Origin: a virus
Taxonomy: Duplodnaviria > Caudoviricetes
DNA length: 64,000 nucleotides
IMG/VR virus record: IMGVR_UViG_3300025121_000013
Reading direction: 5' to 3' (one strand)
The notes beneath the pieces were generated by a model that worked only from the letters and a program-made list of their open reading frames with translations, had not been told where the DNA came from and searched no databases. Within the stretch, counting starts at the first letter, position 1, and each line of letters begins with the position of its first letter. A program made the translations under genes and the position numbers. Of the stretch, positions 1 through 35,329 are shown in pieces.

Positions 1-24
1 TTTCTTCAAGGGATCAAATAATCT

Positions 25-291
25 ATGGTTTCGTTTAAAGAAATGGAGGCTGGTGTGTACAGAGAAGAAGGTATTATGGTTGTTAGAAGGCATAAAGAAA
101 CATTTGAAGAAATGATGAGGCGCTTCAAAAAGAAGTATTCAAAAAGTGGTATCTTACAAGATTTGAAAAAGGTTATGTTTTTTGAAAAAGATTCTGTCCG
201 TAAACGTCGTAAGCGTTCTGTATCTGAAAAAAGGCGCAAGAAGGAACTTGAAAAAATTTATGAATCAAAAGAAAGAAAGGAATCAAAATAA
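25..291 (+). CDS. rpsU: Ribosomal protein bS21, phage-encoded (alternative start ATG at 76)
   Basis: FEEMMRRFKKKYSKSGILQDLKKVMFFEKDSVRKRRKR matches the bS21 pattern (ALRRFK..V.K.G...E.....YEKPS..RK.K); small and basic. Confidence 0.85.
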   Translation: MVSFKEMEAGVYREEGIMVVRRHKETFEEMMRRFKKKYSKSGILQDLKKVMFFEKDSVRKRRKRSVSEKRRKKELEKIYESKERKESK

Positions 292-292
292 C

Positions 293-574
293 ATGAATAT
301 TAAAGCGGGTTTTGATAAAGTGATTGTTAAGCCTTTTGAGGTCGAAAATAAAGTGGGTTCAATAATTCTTTCAGCGACAACCACTCCTCCTCAATCTTAT
401 GGAAAGGTTTTATCAATTGGTAAAGATGTAAAAACTGATGTTAAGATTGGCGAGGTTGCAATTTTTGCAAGATTCGCAGGGCAAACAATTGTAGTTGGAA
501 AAGAAGAATATCGGGTTCTTATGGATGGAGAAATTTATGGAGTTTTAGAAAACATCGAATCTTTAAATGGTTAA
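293..574 (+). CDS. groES: Co-chaperonin GroES; start reassigned to ATG 293, just after the rpsU stop
   Basis: DKVIVKP...GSIIL...GKVLSIG...VKIGEVAIFARFAGQTIVVGKEEYRVLMDGEIYGV is a typical Cpn10 sequence. Confidence 0.9.
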   Translation: MNIKAGFDKVIVKPFEVENKVGSIILSATTTPPQSYGKVLSIGKDVKTDVKIGEVAIFARFAGQTIVVGKEEYRVLMDGEIYGVLENIESLNG

Positions 575-585
575 GGATACAAAAA

Positions 586-1227
586 ATGAAAAAGGGTCTT
601 GATCATATCATTGTGGTTATAGACAAAAGTGGGTCTATGGATGTTGCTAAAAATGAAACGATTACCGGGTTTAATAAATTCATTGAGGAACAAAAGAATT
701 TAAAAGATCGAAACGCTTTTATCACAGTGATTCAATTTAATACAGATTATAATTTTTATTGCAAGAATATTCCTATCAACGAAGTGAAAGATCTTAATGA
801 AAGTGCCTATAGACCTTATGGGTTCACTGCATATTTCGACGCTTTAGGAAAAGCGATTGATGAAACAGGAATTTATTTAGATGGCTTGACAGAAGATGAA
901 AAGCCAGAAAATGTAATTATGGTTTCAATAACTGACGGGCAAGAAAATGCCTCAAAAGAATATAATTCTGAAAAAATTAAAAATATGATTAAACATCAAC
1001 AAGATAAATATTTGTGGAAATTTATATTTTTATCAGCCGGTGAAGAAGCTTTTAAGACTATTAAATCCCTCAATATAGATCCATCTTTTACTTATAAATT
1101 TGATAATGGCGCTAGAGGAATTAATTCTTCTTATTTATCTATGTCCATGGGGACAACTTGTATGAGAACATCTTGCTACAACAAAAAAGATATTCTAGAT
1201 AAAACTGGGCAAAAAGAAAGCGATTAA
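586..1227 (+). CDS. vWA domain protein
   Basis: MIDAS motif IDKSGS, T..DA (FTAYFDA) and ITDGQENAS. Confidence 0.85.
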   Translation: MKKGLDHIIVVIDKSGSMDVAKNETITGFNKFIEEQKNLKDRNAFITVIQFNTDYNFYCKNIPINEVKDLNESAYRPYGFTAYFDALGKAIDETGIYLDGLTEDEKPENVIMVSITDGQENASKEYNSEKIKNMIKHQQDKYLWKFIFLSAGEEAFKTIKSLNIDPSFTYKFDNGARGINSSYLSMSMGTTCMRTSCYNKKDILDKTGQKESD

Positions 1228-1229
1228 GA

Positions 1230-2018
1230 ATGAATTTAACTTTTATTAATGCCACAACAATTTCAGATTTGTGGTTTCAAGCAATTTATTCAATTATTGA
1301 TAATGGAAAAAGATTTAAGATTGATGAAGGCTCATACGCTGGACAAATGAGATTGGAGTTTGATTATTTTATCGGCCAAATTAAATGTCCATGGGGTGAA
1401 CCAATTCTTCCTGTAATTCCTCCGGGTTTAGACATCCCTCCACCTGTGGAAAATGATTATATTTTTGGTGGAAAAAATTATGATAGATCATATATTGAAT
1501 ATTTAATGACACCGACAAAAATGGCAAATGAATCATATACTTATGGTGAAAGATTAACACAATACAATGTATCAGAATTTATAAAAGAAAAGAGAGATGA
1601 AAAAAAGCATGAAATCGTCAATGTTGAAAAATATGATGATAAGATTTTATTGGCTGATAATTCAAATTTGTTCATCAATCAGATAGAATATGTTATAAAT
1701 AAATATAAGACCTCAGGACATAGAAATAATCAATTGATTTTACAGGTTGGAAATCCTGATGATCTTTTGTTAGTTGATCCACCATGTCTAAGACATATTG
1801 ATACAAGAATTCAAGATAACAAACTTCATTTTTTTGTGTATTTTAGATCATGGGATTTATGGGGTGGGTTGCCAGCAAATTTAGCGGGGATACAATATTT
1901 AAAAAATTACATGTCAAATGAAATTGGGGTAGAAGATGGGGAAATGGTTGTAGAGTCAAAGGGTTTGCACATATATGGTTATGCTGAAGATCTTGTAAAA
2001 TTGAGGTGCGGAAAATAA
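1230..2018 (+). CDS. thyA: Thymidylate synthase-family enzyme (archaeal-like ThyA or dUMP-modifying paralog)
   Basis: YTYGERL, catalytic PPCL, YFRSWDLWGGLPAN, and KGLHIY (S.HIY equivalent). Confidence 0.75.
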   Translation: MNLTFINATTISDLWFQAIYSIIDNGKRFKIDEGSYAGQMRLEFDYFIGQIKCPWGEPILPVIPPGLDIPPPVENDYIFGGKNYDRSYIEYLMTPTKMANESYTYGERLTQYNVSEFIKEKRDEKKHEIVNVEKYDDKILLADNSNLFINQIEYVINKYKTSGHRNNQLILQVGNPDDLLLVDPPCLRHIDTRIQDNKLHFFVYFRSWDLWGGLPANLAGIQYLKNYMSNEIGVEDGEMVVESKGLHIYGYAEDLVKLRCGK

Positions 2019-2019
2019 A

Positions 2020-2667
2020 ATGGAAAAGACAAAGAAGATTTATGTAAATGAATTGATCGTTAGCGATAAATGGATTCTTAATAATAATGAAATAAAAACT
2101 TTGGTCAATCCAAAAACTATTTTAAAAAGTGTTGAATTTGATAAAATTGAAAGACGATCTATTTTTTGTGAAGCGATGTTTTCTTCGGAAAATGCACAAA
2201 CTCAATTTATTAGGGTCGGTGAAAATATTTTTCTAAATGGTGGGTATATCACAGCTAAAGTCGCAACAAAAAATCTAACAGAGTGGTTTATGGCAAGTCA
2301 AAATCATTTTAAAAAAAATAAGTTATTTGAATATGAATATTATAAATTCTTTGAATTAATTTCTTCTATTCCAGAAAATAAATCTTTATTTTATAGAACA
2401 AGTTATCCCGACTATTTATTCATTAAAGAAAATATGAATTCATCTTTTTTTCCGTTAACGCTTACATTTTTAGTAGAACTTTTTTCTATAAATGAAAAGA
2501 TAAGAACTAATATAGAAATTAATAAATTTGAATTGGAACTTTTAACTCAAGACTCTCCTTTTAATTTTGATCAAAATAAAATATTTCTAAGAGATAAATT
2601 TTCTTCTTATGATCCCCGTATGTATAATTTCTTTTGGATGCTTCAAAAATTGGAAATTAATCAATGA
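2020..2667 (+). CDS. Hypothetical protein in the thyA / Q-salvage operon
   Basis: 215-aa ORF tightly packed between neighbours, with an ATGA overlap at its 3' end. Confidence 0.7.
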   Translation: MEKTKKIYVNELIVSDKWILNNNEIKTLVNPKTILKSVEFDKIERRSIFCEAMFSSENAQTQFIRVGENIFLNGGYITAKVATKNLTEWFMASQNHFKKNKLFEYEYYKFFELISSIPENKSLFYRTSYPDYLFIKENMNSSFFPLTLTFLVELFSINEKIRTNIEINKFELELLTQDSPFNFDQNKIFLRDKFSSYDPRMYNFFWMLQKLEINQ

Positions 2668-3515
2668 GAAGTTTTTCAACAATTCAAAATATAATCAATT
2701 TTTCAGAAAATTTCTTAAATTCTAAAAATGATTTTATTAGAATTAATGATGAAGAATATTTTAGTTTATTAGTCTCAAAGATAAAAAACTTTAATTCTAA
2801 TTATAAAAAGATTGAGATAAATCCAAAAATCATTAAACAATTGATTTTAATGACATCCATTAATTTTTGTTATTGGTATGGAAATTCATATCATAGAATT
2901 AATAATTCTTCTTCAAGTAAATTAGGAAATATTATTTATGAAGCCATAGAAAATTCTAATGGATTAAATCATAACGGTATTATAAGAGAAATAATTTCTA
3001 AAATGGTAATGGAAAGATTTCCTTTATTAGATGAGAGAATTAGAATTTTAAAAAGTATTTCTGATTGGGATATAAATTCTATAATTAGAAATGTGACATC
3101 AACTAAAAGTTTGGAAGAAGTTTTTTCTATTTTTCTTTGTACCATTCCACATTTTGGAAATGATTTTTTTCTTAAAAAGGCATGTTTATTTTTTATCGAA
3201 TTGAATAGAATTTTTGGATTATATGAAGATGAAATAAATATGTTGATAGTTCCGGCAGATTATCAAGTCCCAAAAATCCTCCATTATTTTAATTGTTTTC
3301 AATATTCAGAATATTTAAGAAATAAGATAGATAGCGATCTTTTGATTTTACCAAATTCTAAAGAAGAAATTTCAATAAGAACAGCTACAGTTTTTTCTTG
3401 TGAACAATTGAAAAAATTAACTAATAAAAGTATCTCAGATATTGACGAATTTTTATGGGGAAATAGAGATCTTTGTAAAAATCCATTTCATTTAACAATT
3501 ACCACAGATTATTAA
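2664..3515 (+). CDS. Queuosine salvage hydrolase-like protein (DUF2419/QNG1 family)
   Basis: FLKKACL...PADYQVPKIL...YS..L...I....EEISIR.AT...DEFLW...PFHLTITTDY follows the Q_salvage pattern (FYKRAQI...FADYRVPQ.L...EVEIRA...D..LW...PFH.T.SIFY). Confidence 0.8.
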   Translation: MRSFSTIQNIINFSENFLNSKNDFIRINDEEYFSLLVSKIKNFNSNYKKIEINPKIIKQLILMTSINFCYWYGNSYHRINNSSSSKLGNIIYEAIENSNGLNHNGIIREIISKMVMERFPLLDERIRILKSISDWDINSIIRNVTSTKSLEEVFSIFLCTIPHFGNDFFLKKACLFFIELNRIFGLYEDEINMLIVPADYQVPKILHYFNCFQYSEYLRNKIDSDLLILPNSKEEISIRTATVFSCEQLKKLTNKSISDIDEFLWGNRDLCKNPFHLTITTDY

Positions 3516-3562
3516 CATAAAGTTTTAAATGAGTCCATCGGTAACAAAACATAAAAAGGTGA

Positions 3563-4951
3563 ATGTCAATGAGTCAAAAGAAAAGTGGATTCATTTTAGC
3601 TGGAGGGGAAACTTTAAATTCCATTTGTGATAGATATTTAAAAAGTGAAGGCGAGGATTATATTACAAGAGAAGGAATTAATTCTATGTTAAATAAATCT
3701 ATCTCTGGAGTTTTACATTCTTTCGGTGAGGCTTTTGAAAAGAGAAGAAATATAAACACTCATATTAAATCTCATAGAAAAATTTTTCAGTCTATGATAG
3801 ATACAAAAATTTTAGATGGAATTAATATATTTTGTGACTCTGGAGGATTTCAAGCTTCCATAGGAAGGCTCGAAAAAGAATCCACTGATGATTTAATTCA
3901 GGCATATCATAAATTTTTAAGAGAAGAACATAATCTTATTGATAGGGCTTTTGTATTAGATTTGCCCCCAGGCCCAGGGTGCAAAATATTTCATTCTTTT
4001 GAAGAGATATATGAAAAGAATTTAGAAACATATAAAATGGCTTCTGAATTCCCTGATGAAATTAGATCTAAAATGATTTATATTCATCATTTTAGAACAC
4101 CAAAATTATGGAATATATTTAATAGAATTCTTTTTGAAAATGATTTGTTTGAAAAGTTTTCACATTTTGCAACAGGGGGAATTGTCGCAAATACAAAAGG
4201 AGATAGTAATATACCTTGCATAATTTATGTTTTGCCTTTAATTCCCCTTTTAATACAATGTAAAAAAAGAAATATTAAAAAATTAGATTTTCATATTTTA
4301 GGAGGCGCTACATTTAGGGATTTATTTTTTTATGAGATATTAGAAAAACATATAAAAGAAGTTCATGATATTCAAGTGAATTTTACGTTTGATTCTTCCA
4401 GTCTATTTAAAGGGTTGATGATAGGAAGATTTATTGTAATAATTGAAGAAGATGGAACTTTTAGAAAATTAGATTTGAGAAGTTCTTTATTAGATTTGAG
4501 ATTTAAGGGAAAAGAAACTCATAGAACAACATATTTAAAACATTTAAATAAGATGGCTCAGAAATATAATTTTAAACCATTAAATTTAACTGAGCCATAT
4601 TCTAAAGAAACAGGAACTTTTTTTCCAATATTTTCAGTTTATACAATGTTATTTATGCTTGATCAGTTTTCTGAATGTCAAACGATGTTTTCAAAATCCG
4701 CTACAAATTTTTATGAATTATATAAAATGGATAAGATTGAAGAGTTAAATTTTGAAACCAATGAAATTACAAAAAAAATAAACAAAGGAAATATTACAAG
4801 AAAACAAACTGCAAAAAACTTTGGGCTTATAAATTCATTAAAAATAATTACCGAACTAAATTATGATTATTGTGAATATATTGTTAACAAATGTTTATCG
4901 AAAGATGAGTTCATCAATTTATCCGATAGAAAGAAAATTCTAACGTTTTAA
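3563..4951 (+). CDS. tRNA-guanine transglycosylase-fold protein (TGT/DpdA-like)
   Basis: DSGGFQ signature, then VLD, ATGG, HILGG and FDSS in the TGT barrel order; no C-terminal CxCxxC-H zinc motif seen. Confidence 0.75.
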   Translation: MSMSQKKSGFILAGGETLNSICDRYLKSEGEDYITREGINSMLNKSISGVLHSFGEAFEKRRNINTHIKSHRKIFQSMIDTKILDGINIFCDSGGFQASIGRLEKESTDDLIQAYHKFLREEHNLIDRAFVLDLPPGPGCKIFHSFEEIYEKNLETYKMASEFPDEIRSKMIYIHHFRTPKLWNIFNRILFENDLFEKFSHFATGGIVANTKGDSNIPCIIYVLPLIPLLIQCKKRNIKKLDFHILGGATFRDLFFYEILEKHIKEVHDIQVNFTFDSSSLFKGLMIGRFIVIIEEDGTFRKLDLRSSLLDLRFKGKETHRTTYLKHLNKMAQKYNFKPLNLTEPYSKETGTFFPIFSVYTMLFMLDQFSECQTMFSKSATNFYELYKMDKIEELNFETNEITKKINKGNITRKQTAKNFGLINSLKIITELNYDYCEYIVNKCLSKDEFINLSDRKKILTF

Positions 4952-4970
4952 TTTTTAATGGGAGGTTTAT

Positions 4971-6452
4971 GTGATTACAGAATCCTTTTTGGAATCTTGC
5001 TTTTCTATGATTCTTTCTGAATCTTCGAAAATCAAGAAGACAAAAGTTTTGTATCGAGATATATTAGAAATTATCACGTTTTATGAAAAAAGTAAAGAGA
5101 TTAGTATTCCTATCAATATTCAACAAAAAACAGATCTTTTGAAAAAAATTACAGAATTACTTTCTTCAGATAAATCTTTAAATGAATCTATAGATAGCAT
5201 TTTATATAGCGAAAAGTATAAACAATTTTCTGAATATATTGATAATAAAAGAAAAGAAAAATTAAATAGTGGAGAATGGGATAGTATTATTAATCAAATA
5301 CGTTTAAGAAAAAAAATAAATGCGTTATTTAAAAATTTCGATTATTTAAATAATGTAATTGAAACTATAAAAGATGGAACATTTGATAGTTTAGATGATG
5401 CAGTTTTAGATTATGAAAATATGGTTAGAATTTTATTTTCAAATATGATGGATAATAATAGATCGATTTCTTTAGAGGCCGCTTCTTCTTTAGATTTAAA
5501 GAAAGATGATTTTGACGATGTTCTTTCTATGATCATAAAAAAATATGAAAGAAAAAATGTAACCCCAACTGGATTTCCTTTATTTGACAGAGAGGTATTT
5601 AATGGTGGGTTTGAGCCATCGAGATTATATCTTTTTGCTGGCGGGTCAGGCTCAGGAAAATCGACACTTTTATTAAATTTAATTACAAATAGTTCTACGA
5701 ACAATTATTTAAAATTAGTTAATAAAGATGAAAAGCCAAGAGATATTCCAAACGTATATGTTTATATTACAATGGAAAATACAATTGAAGAATCTTTACT
5801 TAGATTGTATATGCAACTTTTTAATAAGACAATTCTTGATTCTCTTGAAGATATAAAAAATCATATAGATATAAAGAAAGAAATTTTAAGATATTTAAAT
5901 ATTACAAATTCCACAATTATAATGAAATATTTTCCCCCAATGTCTATAAGTGCATCGGATATTATGGTCGTTTTAGATGATGCGATAAATGAATATGGAA
6001 AGGACTCTATAAAAGGTCTTTATGTTGATTATTTAGACCTTTTAAAACTTGATGTAAAATATGATATTTATCGTTTAGAATTAGGACATATAACTTTATC
6101 TTTAAAAACTATCGCTGTTCATTATAATATTCCCGTTATAACCGCTTCACAATTGGGAAGGGCTTCATACAGAATAAGTAAAGCGTCAGAATTGAATATC
6201 GACCAAATCGGAGAATCTATTAAAAAGGTTGAACATGCAGATTTCGTTTGTTTAATGGCTAGAAATCTTTTTAATCAAGATATTGTTCATGGAAAGGTTG
6301 GAAAGAATAGAGGCGGAAAATCAAATGTCGATATTCAGTTTAAGGTAGATTTTCAAATATATAAATTTATCAGCGCATCTAAAGAATCTGTTATGAAGGA
6401 TGGAAACATAAGTGAATCAGCAAAGTTCAATACAATCAAATCTGGTTTTTAA
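4971..6452 (+). CDS. Replicative DNA helicase (DnaB/T4 gp41-like)
   Basis: TPTGF..FD...GG, Walker A AGGSGSGKS, YITME, Walker B VDYLD, TASQLGR, ESIKKVEHADF and KNRGG. Confidence 0.9.
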   Translation: MITESFLESCFSMILSESSKIKKTKVLYRDILEIITFYEKSKEISIPINIQQKTDLLKKITELLSSDKSLNESIDSILYSEKYKQFSEYIDNKRKEKLNSGEWDSIINQIRLRKKINALFKNFDYLNNVIETIKDGTFDSLDDAVLDYENMVRILFSNMMDNNRSISLEAASSLDLKKDDFDDVLSMIIKKYERKNVTPTGFPLFDREVFNGGFEPSRLYLFAGGSGSGKSTLLLNLITNSSTNNYLKLVNKDEKPRDIPNVYVYITMENTIEESLLRLYMQLFNKTILDSLEDIKNHIDIKKEILRYLNITNSTIIMKYFPPMSISASDIMVVLDDAINEYGKDSIKGLYVDYLDLLKLDVKYDIYRLELGHITLSLKTIAVHYNIPVITASQLGRASYRISKASELNIDQIGESIKKVEHADFVCLMARNLFNQDIVHGKVGKNRGGKSNVDIQFKVDFQIYKFISASKESVMKDGNISESAKFNTIKSGF

Positions 6453-6471
6453 GATCTGATCTTAAGATTTT
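6448..6471. repeat. Intergenic 24-mer TTTAAGATCTGATCTTAAGATTTT, copy 1
   Basis: Identical to 14091-14114; both copies precede head genes. Confidence 0.85.
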
Positions 6472-6543
6472 GTGAAATATTTTTATGAACAAAATCTAAA
6501 TTGATGGTGTTTTATTTTTAACAATATCTTTGGAGGTAGGGAA

Positions 6544-7338
6544 ATGTCTAAAAGAATGTCTTATCTTGAACTTTTAAGAGAGGCTGTAAATGGTGATATT
6601 GAAACTGTGACGAAGTTTGTTGATACGAAAGGCCCAATGGTTGAGCCTATCTTGTCTTATCGTGGTGAAGGGGAAATGTCCACTCATAAGGATGCCGCTT
6701 CAATTCTTGAAAGATATTATTATAATGAAAATGAGGAGCCTTATATCCAGGTTGAGGATGAGCCAATTGATAATCCTATTTCAACCGTCCCTGAAGAGAA
6801 TCCCGAAGAGACAAAAAATGATATTGAGCAGGCTTTAACTGAGGCTGAGGAAGAGGGTGGAGAAGAGGAAAAAGAAGACAAAGACGAAGATGAAAAAGAA
6901 GAAGATGAAGAGACTGATGAAAAAGAAGAGGACGAAGATAAGAAAGAAGTGACAACCGAAAGTATGGAAAGAACTATTATTGAGAGACTCATCTCTGAAA
7001 TGGAGTCTGAGTCTGAAGAGGATGAAAAGGGTGAGGGAAGTGAAGGAGAAAAGGAAACTGAGACAGGAACAGAAGCAGCCGGTCTTGGAGATGGAAAAGA
7101 AGTTTTAGCAGAGGAAGATGATGAGGAAAATATGGATAAGGAAGATGAAGACGAGAATGATATAGAAGACGAAGATGAGGATGAAGACGAAGATGAAAGC
7201 AAAGTGGATGAGTTTGATGTTGATAATAAAATCTCTGAAGGATTTCCAATAGGTCCGATTTCTAACAGAGAAGAGAAAGATCTTCAAGAAACCTTTAAGA
7301 TTTTTATGGATGAAATAAAGGTTTACAGAAAGAAATAA
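6544..7338 (+). CDS. Highly acidic protein, possibly a prohead core or internal head protein
   Basis: GGAGG RBS; long E/D-rich tracts; lies just upstream of the head module. Confidence 0.6.
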   Translation: MSKRMSYLELLREAVNGDIETVTKFVDTKGPMVEPILSYRGEGEMSTHKDAASILERYYYNENEEPYIQVEDEPIDNPISTVPEENPEETKNDIEQALTEAEEEGGEEEKEDKDEDEKEEDEETDEKEEDEDKKEVTTESMERTIIERLISEMESESEEDEKGEGSEGEKETETGTEAAGLGDGKEVLAEEDDEENMDKEDEDENDIEDEDEDEDEDESKVDEFDVDNKISEGFPIGPISNREEKDLQETFKIFMDEIKVYRKK

Positions 7339-7378
7339 AAAGTCAAAGAAAAGCTTCAACGTAAGGAAAAATACTAAA

Positions 7379-7417
7379 CCCCATTGACCTATGTTATAAA
7401 GATATAGGTCAATGGGG
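7379..7417 (+). terminator. Rho-independent terminator
   Basis: 14-bp perfect stem CCCCATTGACCTAT/ATAGGTCAATGGGG followed by TTTCTTTT. Confidence 0.75.
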
Positions 7418-7446
7418 GTTTCTTTTCAATGAAAGAGAGAATTGAA

Positions 7447-7842
7447 ATGTCAGAGAAAAAGAAAATCTATTTAGCTGGACCGTATTCTCATAAAGAAAAA
7501 GAAATTAGAAATAAAAGATTTGAAGATTTAAATAAAATTTCTGGAATTTTAATTTTAATGGGATATCATGTTTTTAGTCCAATATCTCATTCTCATCCAA
7601 TTGCTGAATCGGTTGAATTACCTACTGAGTTTGATTTTTGGTGTGAATATGATACGTGCTTTATTAATTGGTCTGATGGGATTTTTGTTTATTGTAATGA
7701 TGGATGGAAAATAAGTAAAGGAGTTACAAAAGAGATCGAAATTGGAAAATCTTTAGATAAACCAATATATTATATTTATCCAGAGAATGTGGATTTCGAA
7801 AGAAAAAATCTTTTGGCATTTGTATCGCCACCTTTAAAATAA
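7447..7842 (+). CDS. Nucleoside 2-deoxyribosyltransferase-fold protein (DUF1937-like)
   Basis: IYLAGPYS...VFSP...D.......SDGI....GW..SKGV..EI......KPI. Confidence 0.7.
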   Translation: MSEKKKIYLAGPYSHKEKEIRNKRFEDLNKISGILILMGYHVFSPISHSHPIAESVELPTEFDFWCEYDTCFINWSDGIFVYCNDGWKISKGVTKEIEIGKSLDKPIYYIYPENVDFERKNLLAFVSPPLK

Positions 7843-8787: not shown

Positions 8788-11700
8788 ATGGCTTCAATTA
8801 AAGATACGTTTGCAAAGTTAAAAACTTCTATCGTTGGAACAACCACCACAAATATTGATAATAAATTAGATCAGGCTTTAACTGATATTAATTCATATAG
8901 AAATCAAAGTGGTAAAAATGGTTATATTGATTTAATGAAAACTTTGATTTCAAAGAATGTTGATTTTGTTCCCGACGTTGCTAACACCGGAACTGGGTTA
9001 TTTGGGTCTGCTGGTTCTTCTCCAGCTAATTATGGACAAAGTGGCAGAATTTTAAGATATAAAGTTTATCAATCAATTGTTACAAATATTAGTTATTGTT
9101 TTAGAGCATTGGATGTTTTAGTTGATAATATTTTATCTCCAGATGACATTACAAAAATTTCATTAGACGTAAAAGAAATTAAAAATATAAATGATATAAA
9201 TGTTCAAAGTTTGACAGAAAAAACTAAATTATTAATAAATGATATAAAGCTTGAAAAACATTTGCCTTTAATTATTAAAGAGACATTAAAGTTTGGAGAT
9301 TTCTTTGTCGAGATTAGCAATTCAAAAGATGTTTTATTTACAAAAACAATTTTAACTGAAGAGAGTATTTTAGGACAGGATGAAAACAGAGGAAAACAAA
9401 GAATCAAATTACAAGAAAAACTTATTGATGAAAAAGATTCAAAGTTAAAAATTCCTGAAATTTTAATAGATTATAAGATATTAGAAAATGAAAGAAAAGA
9501 AGGAAAAAAAGAAGAGAAAAAATTAACTTCTAAAGATATTAAATTAGTTTTTCATGCCCCTCAAAGAGTGGTAAAATTACAGAGTGTCGCATATCCAATT
9601 TGTTTTGGATATTTAATATTTCCACAATCCTCATTTACTCCAATAGAGATGTTTCAAGACACCACAATAAATAATATTTGTAATCAAATTTTAAAAAATC
9701 TTGAATCAAATATTCCAGCGATGGGTGACTTTGATGCGCCGGATGATTTAAAAGATGTCATCCGTTTAATGATTCAAAATGCCGATCCAACCAGAGCATT
9801 GAGTATTAGATATGTTCCGCCTAATAAAATTGCACATTTTTTGGTCCCATCTTATAAATATTATCCTTATGGAGAATCCATATATGATAGCGCTCAATAC
9901 ACGGCGAAAGTTTTAATCGCTTTAGAAACGGCTTTAGCCATTCAAAGACTTTCAAGATCAACTGAGAAAAGAAAGATCACGGTTGATATTGGATTGCCAA
10001 GAGATGCAAAAAAAGAGATTGAAAGTTTAAAAGAAGTTTTTAGAAAGAGAAAAATCAATTTAGATTCGTTTGGAACTATCGACACTATAGCGTGTTTAGA
10101 TTTGGATACTGAGATTATGTTGACAAATGGCAAATCAATGCCAATAGGAGACATTGTAAAATATTTTAATGAAGGAAAAGAATTTGAAATTTTAGCCTAT
10201 GATAAAGAGTCTGGGACAATTGTTCCTGATAAAGTTGTAAGCGCTAAAATAACTGGAAGAAATGTTAAAACTATAAAGGTGATTTTAGATAATAATGAAT
10301 TTGTAATTTGTACGCCTGAACATTTATTTATGATGAGAGATGGCTCATATAAGGAAGCAAAAGATCTTATTCTTGGTGATTCTTTAATGCCTTTATATAC
10401 ACGATCTTCAAATAGTACAACTTCTAAGGGGTTTACTTATGAAGAAATGTATCAACCTGGGTTAAATACTTGGAAATTAACCCATCAAGTTTTTGGAAAA
10501 TATTTAGGACTTTATGAAAATAAAGATGTTGTGCATCATATTAATAAAAATCCAAGAGATAATAGTTCTTGTAATCTTTTAGGATGTACACATACAGAAC
10601 ATGCTGAGATTCACTCAAATGATAAAGAAAATGGTTATAACGGTGGAAATATTGGAAGGACTCAAATTAGAAAGAAAATAAATTGTGTTATTTGTGAAAA
10701 AGAATTTGAGAAAAATTATTGGGAAGAAAAACTAACTTGTTCCAATGAATGCTTTTTAATTTATAAGAAAAACTATAGCGTAAAGTCTTGGGAAACAAGA
10801 AAAGATCAAAATGAATATGTGCTTCATTCGGAAAAGTGTTTTATTTGTGGGAAAGAGTTTAAGATCACTAGATCTTTATATAATAAGATGATCGACGATG
10901 GTTTGAGATTAGTTTGTGAAAGTAAAAAATGCAAAGAAATTAATAAAGCGGTAAGAAAAGAAAGTTGTCCTATTTTTTATGTAGAATGTGTTAATTGTAA
11001 AAGAAATTTTATATCTGAAGATAAAAATAGAAAGGCTTGCAATGTTTTTTGTTGGAATAAACATATTAAAGAAAATGGGTTTAAACAAAATAGAGTTTCA
11101 GGAAAATGTCAAAACTGCGGAAAAAACGATATAGTATATTCTAAAGGTTTTTATAAAACATGTGATAATAAGAATTGTAAAAAAATAACAAAATCTTTAA
11201 ATACAACTTTATGTAAAAATGGAAATTGTACATTAATTGATTTTACAAAATGTTCTATATGTGGAAAAGATACTGTAATTTCCAAAAAGAAATCTGGATA
11301 CACTTTTGGAACTTGTGGAATAAGATCTTGTAGCCATAAAGCAATGCATAGGGGAATTTATCGAAATAAAGATCTTCAGGTTTTAAGAGAAGGAGTGAAG
11401 ATTGAAAAAAAGATTTTTTCAAATCATAAAGTTGAATCTATCGAGTATTTAAATGAAGGAAGAGATGTCGCAGACATTCAGACATCTAAATATCATAATT
11501 TCGGACTTAAAGCTAGTATATTCGTACATAATTCGCAAATCTCCACATTCGAGGATATCTATATTCCTACCAAGGACGGTAAGGCTTTTTTCGATGTTGA
11601 CACATTTACCGGTGGAAATGTTGATATTAGATCAAAAGTTGATGAGTTAAAATTCCTTAGAGATCAATTAGTTGCATCACTTTCGATTCCACCAGCGTTT

Positions 11701-12132
11701 TTGGGGATAGAAGAAAACGCGATCGTTAAAGCCACGTTATCCGAAGAGAATATTCTTTTTGCTAGAACAATTATTGCAGACCAGAAATTTATTTCTGAAC
11801 AAATAAATGATTTAATAGAAAAGATTTATCAAATTATTGATCCAGAAGAATATTTAACAGCTTGGGAAAATATTAAAATTACTTTGCCTCCGCCAAAGTC
11901 TTTACAATTTGAGAGAGAAGCAAAATATACAAATGATTTAGTCACTTTAGTTGAATCGCTTGAAAGAATAGGGATTCCAAAAAGTTATAGTGTTAAGAAA
12001 TATTTACAAAATATTGACTGGAAAGAAATAGATCAAATAAAAGCTGAAGAAGAAACTGAGGAAAAACTTAATTCAAAAGACAAAGATACAACAGGAGGAA
12101 TGGGTGGCAGTGGGTTGCCTCCTATGTACTAA
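8788..12132 (+). CDS. Portal protein (T4 gp20-like) containing an intein
   Basis: KFGDFF, YGESI, R...TEKRKI.VDIG.LP and EDIYIP..DG....VDTFTGG...DEL..L...L..SL.IP match gp20; lies upstream of the protease and capsid genes. Confidence 0.85.
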   Translation: MASIKDTFAKLKTSIVGTTTTNIDNKLDQALTDINSYRNQSGKNGYIDLMKTLISKNVDFVPDVANTGTGLFGSAGSSPANYGQSGRILRYKVYQSIVTNISYCFRALDVLVDNILSPDDITKISLDVKEIKNINDINVQSLTEKTKLLINDIKLEKHLPLIIKETLKFGDFFVEISNSKDVLFTKTILTEESILGQDENRGKQRIKLQEKLIDEKDSKLKIPEILIDYKILENERKEGKKEEKKLTSKDIKLVFHAPQRVVKLQSVAYPICFGYLIFPQSSFTPIEMFQDTTINNICNQILKNLESNIPAMGDFDAPDDLKDVIRLMIQNADPTRALSIRYVPPNKIAHFLVPSYKYYPYGESIYDSAQYTAKVLIALETALAIQRLSRSTEKRKITVDIGLPRDAKKEIESLKEVFRKRKINLDSFGTIDTIACLDLDTEIMLTNGKSMPIGDIVKYFNEGKEFEILAYDKESGTIVPDKVVSAKITGRNVKTIKVILDNNEFVICTPEHLFMMRDGSYKEAKDLILGDSLMPLYTRSSNSTTSKGFTYEEMYQPGLNTWKLTHQVFGKYLGLYENKDVVHHINKNPRDNSSCNLLGCTHTEHAEIHSNDKENGYNGGNIGRTQIRKKINCVICEKEFEKNYWEEKLTCSNECFLIYKKNYSVKSWETRKDQNEYVLHSEKCFICGKEFKITRSLYNKMIDDGLRLVCESKKCKEINKAVRKESCPIFYVECVNCKRNFISEDKNRKACNVFCWNKHIKENGFKQNRVSGKCQNCGKNDIVYSKGFYKTCDNKNCKKITKSLNTTLCKNGNCTLIDFTKCSICGKDTVISKKKSGYTFGTCGIRSCSHKAMHRGIYRNKDLQVLREGVKIEKKIFSNHKVESIEYLNEGRDVADIQTSKYHNFGLKASIFVHNSQISTFEDIYIPTKDGKAFFDVDTFTGGNVDIRSKVDELKFLRDQLVASLSIPPAFLGIEENAIVKATLSEENILFARTIIADQKFISEQINDLIEKIYQIIDPEEYLTAWENIKITLPPPKSLQFEREAKYTNDLVTLVESLERIGIPKSYSVKKYLQNIDWKEIDQIKAEEETEEKLNSKDKDTTGGMGGSGLPPMY
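10093..11532 (+). mobile_element. Intein (480 aa) with HNH homing endonuclease and Cys-rich repeats
   Basis: Block A CLDLDTEIMLTNG, block B CTPEHLF, HNH VHHINKNPRDN..CNL...H...H, and C-terminal HNF...FVHN followed by Ser. Confidence 0.9.
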
Positions 12133-14208: not shown

Positions 14209-15666
14209 GTGATGAAGGAACTTTTACTTGAGGTTTATAAGACGACAAAGAGGCTTACTTCGGTTGACCCCAGTAAGCCAGGAAATTTAAAACCTTTCCT
14301 GGTGGATGACAATGCTTTCAAGACTTATATGGAAGGACTTTGCGAGTCTTTTCAGAACAAGAAGGACCGTGAGGCTTTTATGGTCCTGGCGGAAAATACT
14401 CGAGTTCGTTTACTTGAAAACTCTATGTTCCAAATGAACCCCTATGAATCTTTAATTTTTCCTGTTTTAAGAGTTTTCTATCCAAAGCTTGTTGCCAAGG
14501 AAGCCGTGACTGTGACTCCTATGGACAAGCCTGAAACCGTGCAAGCTATTTTGACAGCGACTTTCACCCAAGCGAATGGCAACACTCAGTATACCGCCCC
14601 CGTGACTTCTCAGGACATTTCCGGTGGGCCTTCTGTGGGAACTCCAGTGGCGGCTTCAATGCCTGTTCCTAGCACAGATTATGATGTTTTGGCTCAGATC
14701 AGCTTAACCAGTACTCAGGCTCATCTTGAGAGAGATTTTGAAATTACTGGCGTTTCTGCCGATGGTACAAATTTTACCTCAGTCTCGATTCAACCCGCTG
14801 TGGAAGGACATTTTGCTTCTTCAGTGACCATCGTTGGAACTGGAACCGATGTCATTACGGGTAAGGTTGATTATCTCAATGGCACGGTTTCTGTGGCTAG
14901 CACAAGCGCAGTCGTGACTTTTATTCGTTACACGGTTACATGTTCCCTCGAAGAGAATAGAATTAACCCGACTGTGACTCTTTCTGTGGATAAGCTCAGA
15001 CTGTACTCAAAGGATCGTCAGATCACTGCGAACTGGAGCGTGAACTTTGAGCAAGATATGCGTTCACTGTTTGACATGAATACCCAAGCTGAAATGGTTA
15101 ATATTATTGGTCAGCAGGTCGCGCTTGATATTGACAGAGAAATCGTCAATGCTTTAATCGCGGCTAACACGAATTTAAATGCTGCCACCCATAGACGGAC
15201 TTTTAATAGAACTCCCCCTGGAACTTACGTGTGGGGCGTTAAGTATTGGCACGAAAATATTATTTCCGATCTGAATATTCTTTCTTCGAGAATTTTTACC
15301 GATACAAATATTGACCAAGGCAATACCATTTTAGCGAATCCCGTTGACGTTGCCATTTTAGAAGATATCAATACTTTCAATTATACCGGTACTTCGAGCG
15401 TTGATGGGGAAGTTGGTTATCGGTCAGCTACCGTGGCCGGTGGAAAATGGAAGATTCTCACTTCCAATGTGGTTCCCGCTGGAAGCATGATTGTGATTTA
15501 CAAACCAGTTGAAGACATGAAAGCCATTTATATTTATGCGCCTTATATTCCGGCTGTGTTGCATCCTTACCCACTGGGTGCTAAGCCCTCCTTGACGATT
15601 TTAAGTCGGTACGCTAATGCCATGGTGAGAAGCAATGGCGTTGCGGTTCTGACAATCGGTGCGTAA
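14209..15666 (+). CDS. Major capsid protein (T4 gp23-like)
   Basis: LIFPVLRV.YP.L.A..V.V.PM..P, R....W......D, DIDREIV and YAPYIP; AGGAGG RBS; visibly higher GC than neighbours. Confidence 0.9.
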   Translation: MMKELLLEVYKTTKRLTSVDPSKPGNLKPFLVDDNAFKTYMEGLCESFQNKKDREAFMVLAENTRVRLLENSMFQMNPYESLIFPVLRVFYPKLVAKEAVTVTPMDKPETVQAILTATFTQANGNTQYTAPVTSQDISGGPSVGTPVAASMPVPSTDYDVLAQISLTSTQAHLERDFEITGVSADGTNFTSVSIQPAVEGHFASSVTIVGTGTDVITGKVDYLNGTVSVASTSAVVTFIRYTVTCSLEENRINPTVTLSVDKLRLYSKDRQITANWSVNFEQDMRSLFDMNTQAEMVNIIGQQVALDIDREIVNALIAANTNLNAATHRRTFNRTPPGTYVWGVKYWHENIISDLNILSSRIFTDTNIDQGNTILANPVDVAILEDINTFNYTGTSSVDGEVGYRSATVAGGKWKILTSNVVPAGSMIVIYKPVEDMKAIYIYAPYIPAVLHPYPLGAKPSLTILSRYANAMVRSNGVAVLTIGA

Positions 15667-17578: not shown

Positions 17579-17653
17579 TGGCTCCGGGAGGAGGGATCGA
17601 ACCTCCGACTGTCACATTAACAGTGTGATGCTCTTCCGCTGAGCTATCCCGGA
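17579..17653 (-). tRNA. tRNA-Asn(GUU)
   Basis: TCACA-CT GTT AA-TGTGA; encoded CCA. Confidence 0.93.
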
Positions 17654-35240: not shown

Positions 35241-35329
35241 TGGTGCGGAGGGGAGGATTCGAACCTCCAGTGTTTCCTATGTGCCTGATTTACAGTCAGG
35301 TGCCTTCAACCAGTTCGGCGCACCTCCGC
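35241..35329 (-). tRNA. tRNA-Tyr(GUA)
   Basis: CCTGA-CT GTA AA-TCAGG; long variable arm; encoded CCA. Confidence 0.92.

Follow-up and report, generated by a model that had tools for sequence, protein, structure and literature searches.

A pair of adjacent genes in an uncultured phage with a genome of about 265 kb encodes a hydrolase of the Qng1 family and a protein that is predicted to fold like the tRNA-guanine transglycosylases (TGTs) and the transglycosylase DpdA. On balance, we find it probable that the second protein is a divergent DpdA-type DNA transglycosylase fed mainly by bases made de novo, with the Qng1 homolog as an accessory recycler. The pair lies in IMG/VR record IMGVR_UViG_3300025121_000013, of which a stretch of 64,000 nucleotides (the window; bases 6316 to 70315 of a 139,369-bp contig rated 45% complete by CheckV) was analyzed. 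An earlier note on this DNA had described adjacent, co-oriented genes carrying the QNG1/DUF2419 motifs and the TGT motif DSGGFQ, and both are indeed present, at 2664 to 3515 and 3563 to 4951, with a PF10343 match and fold matches to support them. The note had also proposed that salvage takes the place of de novo synthesis, which is contradicted by the QueE, QueC, and FolE2 genes of the same phage. Its preference for DNA as the target fits with the position of the TGT-like gene as a core gene of a replication module and with its co-occurrence with 7-deazaguanine synthesis genes in relatives.

The TGT-like protein (462 aa, or 460 aa in public gene calls, which place its start at 3569) gave no match to Pfam (even at E ≤ 10), to NCBIfam, or to PDB sequences, either alone or as a 31-sequence profile; the check by hidden Markov models against TGT and DpdA4 suggested in the earlier note was thus negative. 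Ten distant members of the family likewise had no match to TGT (PF01702) or DUF6610 (DpdA4, PF20314), and the sole signal at the sequence level is a weak match to phrog_887, annotated as queuine tRNA-ribosyltransferase (1.9e-6). The AlphaFold2 (AF2) model of the protein has a predicted local distance difference test score (pLDDT) of 89.5 and a predicted template modeling score (pTM) of 0.89. In a Foldseek search of the PDB, its top match is the bacterial DpdA 7ui4, followed by TGTs; in a viral library, uncharacterized phage proteins come first, including one from Vibrio phage nt-1, and annotated phage queuine tRNA-ribosyltransferases are also among the matches. Alignment with VIA-align to QTRT1, the Zymomonas mobilis TGT, and the archaeal TGT (arcTGT) yielded Z scores of 17 to 18 and a root mean square deviation (rmsd) of about 4 Å over 306 to 334 residues. 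Judging from this model, we confidently predict that the 462-aa protein folds as a TGT-type (β/α)8 barrel, as the earlier note had supposed.

Residues D92, S93, G94, Q97, D133, H176, G205, G206, and D277 are invariant in 31 homologs (44 to 49% identity), with D92 lying within the motif FCDSGGFQ, and in the AF2 model each of them lies where a predicted β strand reaches its C-terminal end or immediately beyond it. Their spacing is similar to that of the DpdA active-site residues D95, D130, H181, G206/G207, and D256 (PMC10164549). Based on motif, spacing, and strand position, we infer that D277 would be the nucleophile and D92 the acid/base and that D133 and H176 would read the base. The protein would therefore share with bacterial DpdA (S. 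Montevideo, 7ui4) and phage DpdA1 and DpdA2 a TGT-type TIM barrel, counterparts of the catalytic Asp pair, of the base-reading Asp and His, and of the GG loop, as well as a genomic association with QueC, QueD, and QueE. The family to which it belongs has 531 matches in a 90%-identity collection and forms 343 clusters at 50% identity. An apparent DpdA-DnaB fusion (P0276, 969 aa, L074:441-3350) was rejected as an artifact of gene calling with genetic code 4, in which two adjacent genes were merged; the two genes in fact end at TGA codons that fall in frame at residues 457 and 967. Fusions that databases record for these phages should be verified before serving as Rosetta-stone evidence.

The upstream neighbor encodes a 283-aa member of the Qng1/DUF2419 family, an N-glycoside hydrolase of a short phage type. 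It matches Pfam PF10343 (Q_salvage) with an E value of 1.1e-18 and 68.2 bits (cutoff, 25). Its AF2 model (pLDDT 90.9) aligns over 271 to 272 of the 283 residues with 7u5a and 7u91 (Z 25.4, rmsd 2.9 to 3.0 Å), and it matches the human protein 7ugk (Z 25.1) and the Sphaerobacter protein 7u07 (Z ~25) equally well, versus Z scores of 13 or less for helix-hairpin-helix (HhH) DNA glycosylases. Qng1 has been described so far as a eukaryotic and bacterial micronutrient-salvage enzyme, and we found no published description of a phage-encoded Qng1. The short subfamily, of 280 to 300 aa, counts 85 members in a large protein collection and 36 loci in IMG/VR.

The functional residues of StQng1 named by Hung et al. 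(PMC9881137) have counterparts in the phage protein: K171 for K199, the HhH-motif lysine that orients the ribose; L175 for I203, which stacks on the base; D199 for D231, the nucleophile; Y200 for Y232, which stacks on the ribose; D261 for D298, in base recognition; W265 for W302, the base clamp; and Y283 for Y323, the C-terminal tyrosine that contributes its carboxylate. K171 and D199 align with K199 and D231 and are invariant in 24 phage-type homologs; D261-x3-W265 was matched to D298/W302 by motif, as it lies outside the stretch aligned by HMMER. The structural alignment runs through residue 283 to chain residue 323, the phage sequence ending in TITTDY, and the C-terminal Tyr is invariant in phage-type Qng1 proteins (consensus, HLTITTDY). 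The presence of this Qng1-specific C-terminal tail disfavors an action on duplex DNA. Tagging of Qng1 at its C terminus is reported to abolish its activity (PMC9881137). The phage protein thus has in common with Qng1/QNG1 (7u07/7u91, human 7ugk) the full-length fold, the HhH Lys and the Asp, the Asp…Trp base clamp, the ribose-stacking Tyr, and the C-terminal Tyr; it differs in being phage encoded and about 40 residues shorter and in its substrate pocket.

The aromatic residues of the pocket that holds the cyclopentenediol group (W48, Y93, W94, and W299) are not recognizably conserved: there is a 5-residue gap at Y93/W94 and a Glu at the position of W299, in a region where the HMMER alignment is weak. 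Since the pocket alignment is weak, these differences only suggest that the specificity of the phage Qng1 for the 7-substituent is altered. They nevertheless render doubtful the proposal of the earlier note that queuine is the base installed.

Full-length contigs of the same phage, which is also present on public contigs of 264 to 274 kb (GC content, ~29%), including the 264.9-kb record ena:ERZ27254746:k141_407793/GCA_902726505.1, were walked by exact-protein look-ups, covering ~186 kb (70%) of the genome. The earlier note had stated that no folE, queD, queE, or queC gene appears in the window. This is literally correct, but the window includes the last 38 bases of a QueE homolog, and the QueC and FolE2 genes are located beyond the window limits. 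The 234-aa QueE homolog (+ strand; contig positions 5643 to 6353, or −672 to 38 of the window, its last 38 bases thus being window positions 1 to 38) directly follows the DNA polymerase gene polB and carries WQGEG and a Cx8CxxC cluster. Its top five NCBIfam matches are all QueE models (the best at 9.2e-14, below curated cutoffs), and it matches phrog_2076, "QueE-like," at 4e-29. QueC, a protein of 192 aa that matches PF06508 at 9e-30, is encoded 18 kb upstream, past the end of the 139-kb contig. FolE2 (GTP cyclohydrolase IB; L075:1583-2428) is encoded ~155 kb away, also outside that contig, and matches NF010200 at 1e-65 with 221.9 bits (cutoff, 215). The search for que genes elsewhere in the genome that the earlier note had recommended has thus recovered these three components, but not QueD. 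Two further open reading frames (ORFs) border these genes. A 406-aa ORF (L045:10557-11777), without a match in Pfam, NCBIfam, or PHROG, shares 23 nt with the 3′ end of QueC and is partly conserved (62% identity) beside QueC in the relative G006; it is a candidate for a further pathway enzyme. FolE2 directly follows the gene of an Rpb2-type RNA polymerase beta subunit (L075:1-1436) and is itself followed by a Cys-rich 134-aa ORF.

The Pfam models of QueC, QueD, FolE, radical S-adenosylmethionine (SAM) enzymes, and TGT all lack a match on the 139-kb contig. A first reading of these negatives as absence of the pathway genes was ruled out by the genes found on the full-length contigs: QueC and FolE2 were missed because of the contig edge, and the radical-SAM model PF04055 misses the divergent QueE with its Cx8CxxC variant. 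The same negatives, together with the adjacency of the Qng1 and TGT-like genes in one terminator-free unit, are what would speak for a phage devoid of any de novo route, in which queuine freed by Qng1 from broken-down host tRNA is inserted into phage DNA by the TGT-like enzyme. We hold this to be very improbable. The negatives have the causes given above, QueE, QueC, and FolE2 are encoded by the phage itself, the TGT-like gene belongs to the core of these phages but Qng1 is seldom present, and the residues that would accommodate the cyclopentenediol of queuine are not apparently conserved. Moreover, salvage alone could not support an extensive replacement of guanine, because the host queuosine (Q) pool is, by a rough estimate, too small.

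The genomic setting of the TGT-like gene was compared in 34 related jumbo-phage loci from IMG/VR, with subsets of 29 contigs and 14 larger contigs searched for pathway genes. The usual order is polB, QueE (~220 to 240 aa), S21, Cpn10, a ThyA-like gene, variable genes, and the TGT-like gene, followed by small zinc-ribbon genes, DnaB (downstream in 30 of the 34 loci), and, further on, the portal gene. The TGT-like gene is therefore a core gene of a replication module (polB, QueE, and DnaB) in these loci. QueC was found over the Pfam cutoff in 17/29 contigs and QueD in 10/29 (10 of the 12 contigs longer than 110 kb); FolE2 was found in 7 of the 14 larger contigs, and FolE type I and QueF in none of them. 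The clade that carries this core gene consists of deep-branching uncultured jumbo phages of roughly 250 to 310 kb. One of them, G025 (IMGVR_UViG_3300032046_000001; 312,420 bp, with terminal repeats), is a complete relative in which TGT-like and QueE-like genes are present but QueC, QueD, FolE2, and Qng1 have no clear counterpart. The set of pathway genes varies within the clade, and the inserted base probably does too.

Could the pair act on tRNA, in the manner of eukaryotic Qng1 and TGT, installing or restoring Q-type bases at G34 of the GUN tRNAs of phage or host and tuning translation? The phage does encode tRNA-Asn(GUU) (17579 to 17653, − strand) and tRNA-Tyr(GUA) (35241 to 35329, − strand), both named in the earlier note and confirmed by ARAGORN, which would be possible substrates only if tRNA were the target. 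It also devotes further genes to translation, namely those of S21 and of a 551-aa S1-domain protein (L042:10630-12285), and the best structural Z score of the 462-aa protein is to QTRT1, although tied with the bacterial TGT within 1 Z unit. We nonetheless give this explanation a poor chance. The position of the gene, between polB/QueE and DnaB, is conserved; QueC, QueD, QueE, and FolE2 occur along with it; and QueF was found in none of the 14 larger relatives (QueA and QueG were not searched for). In addition, the protein has no zinc subdomain motif, and most relatives keep the TGT-like enzyme without Qng1. Finally, according to Hutinet et al. (PMC10516641), all phages in which 7-deazaguanine DNA modifications are known encode a DpdA-type transglycosylase. 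It is from the replication-module synteny, the negative search for QueF in the 14 larger relatives, and this last finding that we infer a DNA target.

Is the pairing itself meaningful? The earlier note had suggested looking for co-occurrence of the pair in other phages, and this gave little: in none of the 34 related loci are Qng1 and the TGT-like gene closer together than 10 kb, and PF10343 is found elsewhere in the contig in 4 of 29 relatives. Conversely, only 4 of 35 Qng1-bearing phage contigs, all of them known relatives, carry the TGT-like family, and none carries a canonical TGT. The adjacency of Qng1 and the TGT-like gene is confined to this phage species. Still, with 233 ORFs called in the 139-kb contig, the chance that one gene adjoins a given gene is below 1%, and a second, independent adjacency exists in G058, an unrelated T4-like contig in which QueC, an 84-aa ORF, Qng1, and the helicase UvsW follow one another (L109:8788-12116). 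Phage Qng1 is thus linked twice independently to the 7-deazaguanine pathway, through its TGT-like neighbor here and its QueC neighbor in G058. Furthermore, Qng1 lies ~7 kb from QueC in G006, and four other Qng1 contigs also have QueC. The 125 kb available for G058 yielded no identifiable transglycosylase. A 288-aa gene before QueC in this contig was considered as a DpdA and rejected, as it carries a GIY-YIG-like N-terminal motif, recognized by eye, and has no similarity to the 462-aa protein or to phiST gp042. In the wider order of G058, a methyltransferase gene precedes this 288-aa gene, and gp32 lies further on.

These data also bear on the idea that Qng1 is unrelated to its neighbor, being a hydrolase of general use in the nucleotide pool or in scavenging, or else a DNA glycosylase directed against competitors, so that the adjacency is incidental. 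At least 31 other phage contigs, two complete huge genomes among them, have Qng1 but lack the TGT-like family. Qng1 adjoins the large subunit of ribonucleotide reductase in G013 and G021, a nucleotide-metabolism context, and sits among glycosyltransferases in G027. Its fold is that of the HhH glycosylases, and HhH glycosylases attacking 7-deazaguanine DNA exist as host defenses (10.1101/2025.10.29.685425). We regard this explanation as unlikely, in view of the low probability of a chance adjacency and of its second, independent occurrence beside QueC. The phage protein keeps D261 and W265, the residues that recognize a 7-deazaguanine base, and the DNA-glycosylase version is unlikely given its far closer structural match to Qng1 than to DNA glycosylases.

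In the mechanism that we propose, the 462-aa protein would swap guanine in phage DNA for a 7-deazaguanine base after replication, in line with the interpretation by Hutinet et al. (PMC10516641) of these modifications as postreplication DNA changes. The chemistry would be a double displacement, as in TGT and DpdA. The base supply would be mainly phage made, passing from FolE2 through QueD (provided by the host or by the unread part of the genome) and QueE to the truncated QueC. As QueC is truncated, the inserted base may be 7-carboxy-7-deazaguanine (CDG), 7-amido-7-deazaguanine (ADG), or preQ0. The Qng1 homolog would most likely hydrolyze 7-deazaguanine ribonucleoside 5′-monophosphates, formed as host Q-tRNA or another modified nucleic acid is turned over, to the free base, which would join the pool used by the transglycosylase. 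A more specific version is that the phage-specific Qng1 subfamily hands ribonucleotide-derived bases, from breakdown products of host Q-tRNA or from preQ0/ADG-type nucleotides, to a zinc-less DpdA lineage at the replication fork, supplementing FolE2, QueE, and QueC. This would be the first known salvage branch feeding DNA hypermodification; we put it forward tentatively, as a possibility that may well not hold.

Several observations weigh against a DpdA-type enzyme supplied by de novo synthesis and assisted by Qng1. With regard to the enzyme, the zinc-site motif CxCxxC…H, conserved in TGTs and bacterial DpdA (PMC10164549), is absent from the 462-aa protein and its family, in which C140, C219, and C437 are the only conserved cysteines. 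The protein further differs from DpdA in lacking a Pfam TGT match and in having ~50 to 100 extra residues and a helical C-terminal region. There is no profile-level link to TGT (PF01702), to DpdA4 (PF20314), or to the DpdA3 of Cellulophaga phage phiST (gp042/CGPG_00065): hhalign of the 462-aa family against phiST gp042 gave a probability of 0.1, with the low sensitivity of a single-sequence template. The family profile finds nothing in the genomes of phiST, Campylobacter phage CP220, and nt-1, where phrog_887 and PF01702 also have no match, which is uninformative. With regard to the base supply, QueC keeps the SGGADS PP-loop but is truncated, and its activity is uncertain because the C-terminal Cys cluster is missing. 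No QueD gene turned up in the ~186 kb of sequence that was examined. A tblastn search of this sequence with the QueD proteins of six relatives gave nothing, and QueD is not near the PurA-like gene, the site predicted by synteny with G007; in a QueD profile search of a set of 5.8 billion proteins, the contig signature of this phage is missing among the best 120 of 2,087 matches. With regard to Qng1, it is missing from most relatives, and the two complete genomes of huge phages that encode it, of 548 kb and 461 kb, have neither the TGT-like family nor a canonical TGT and show only weak QueC-like matches. Hence, the role of Qng1 need not be tied to DpdA. Lastly, we roughly estimate that, for a burst of 265-kb genomes, the share of guanines that host Q-tRNA could furnish is only a few percent.

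The 462-aa protein is a separate form within the TGT/DpdA kind: it lacks the zinc site, by profile it matches neither PF01702 nor DpdA4, and it showed no link to DpdA3 in a comparison of low sensitivity. A parallel in circumstances is DpdA3 of phiST and CP220, likewise a very divergent TGT homolog missed by Pfam and located in a replication/nucleotide module of phages with CDG-pathway genes (PMC10516641), but the phiST protein has 259 aa and no similarity to the 462-aa protein by hhalign. As to the pair, eukaryotic queuine salvage (Qng1 with QTRT1/QTRT2) combines in the same way a Qng1-type hydrolase with a TGT-fold base exchanger; it differs from the phage case, in which the two genes adjoin each other within a replication operon, genes for de novo 7-deazaguanine synthesis accompany them, and DNA is more likely than tRNA to be the substrate.

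Phage 7-deazaguanine DNA modification and the enzymes DpdA1 to DpdA4 are already known, and salvage would be at most a side branch of this ordinary kind of phage DNA modification. What is added is an indication of a further TGT-fold lineage of more than 500 proteins, undetected by Pfam and matched, weakly, by only one PHROG model, and a phage-specific Qng1 subfamily; if the link of this subfamily to 7-deazaguanine genes is functional, base salvage would extend from tRNA to DNA modification. A negative drawn from a single window or a partial contig can mislead, since three pathway genes were here outside the window or too divergent for a generic Pfam model. Neither the Qng1-like and TGT-like proteins (tblastn) nor their DNA (blastn) has a match among 50,697 GenBank phage records.

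The two genes belong to a tight run on the + strand, in which they are preceded by a VWA-like gene, a ThyA-like gene, and a 215-aa ORFan and followed by DnaB and a gene for a 264-aa protein of unknown function. The thymidylate-synthase-like gene (262 aa, 1230 to 2018; PF00303 at 1.7e-11 and a PHROG thymidylate synthase match) is a conserved neighbor, present in about half of the 34 related loci. The ORFan (2020 to 2667), which overlaps the start of Qng1 by 4 nt, occurs only in this phage: it has no match in Pfam, NCBIfam, or PHROG, it is absent from all 34 related loci, and its atlas model is poor. A 47-nt gap separates the Qng1-like and TGT-like ORFs, and the DnaB-family replicative helicase (4971 to 6452; PF03796 at 8.7e-17) begins 19 nt 3′ of the latter. 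The only terminator-like hairpin in positions 1 to 7500 of the window, a 17-bp stem followed by a T run, lies at 7379 to 7417 (+ strand). As none precedes it, the genes from at least 586 to 7338 probably form one transcription unit; promoter-like matches show no excess over chance. Just past the terminator, a DUF1937/nucleoside 2-deoxyribosyltransferase-like gene (7429 to 7842, + strand; PF09152 at 1.3e-14 and phrog_355 at 1.5e-13), absent from all 34 related loci, contributes another accessory enzyme, acting on bases or nucleosides, in the vicinity of the transglycosylase.

Elsewhere in this region, S21 (25 to 291) and Cpn10/GroES (293 to 574) sit between QueE and the ThyA-like gene, as in relatives. 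The family B DNA polymerase gene directly 5′ of QueE (L001:2459-5701) encodes an N-terminal domain of the uracil-DNA glycosylase (UDG) family (PF03167 + PF03104 + PF00136), and a 1077- to 1085-aa version of this UDG-domain polymerase also precedes QueE in several relatives. The portal gene, of the T4 gp20 type (8788 to 12132), is split by an intein with an HNH endonuclease domain (PF14890, PF13392, and PF07230). The gp23-type major capsid protein (14209 to 15666) has one remote tblastn match among the same GenBank records, with 23% identity over 47% of the protein, in a 595-kb uncultured phage, in keeping with a clade that branches deeply.

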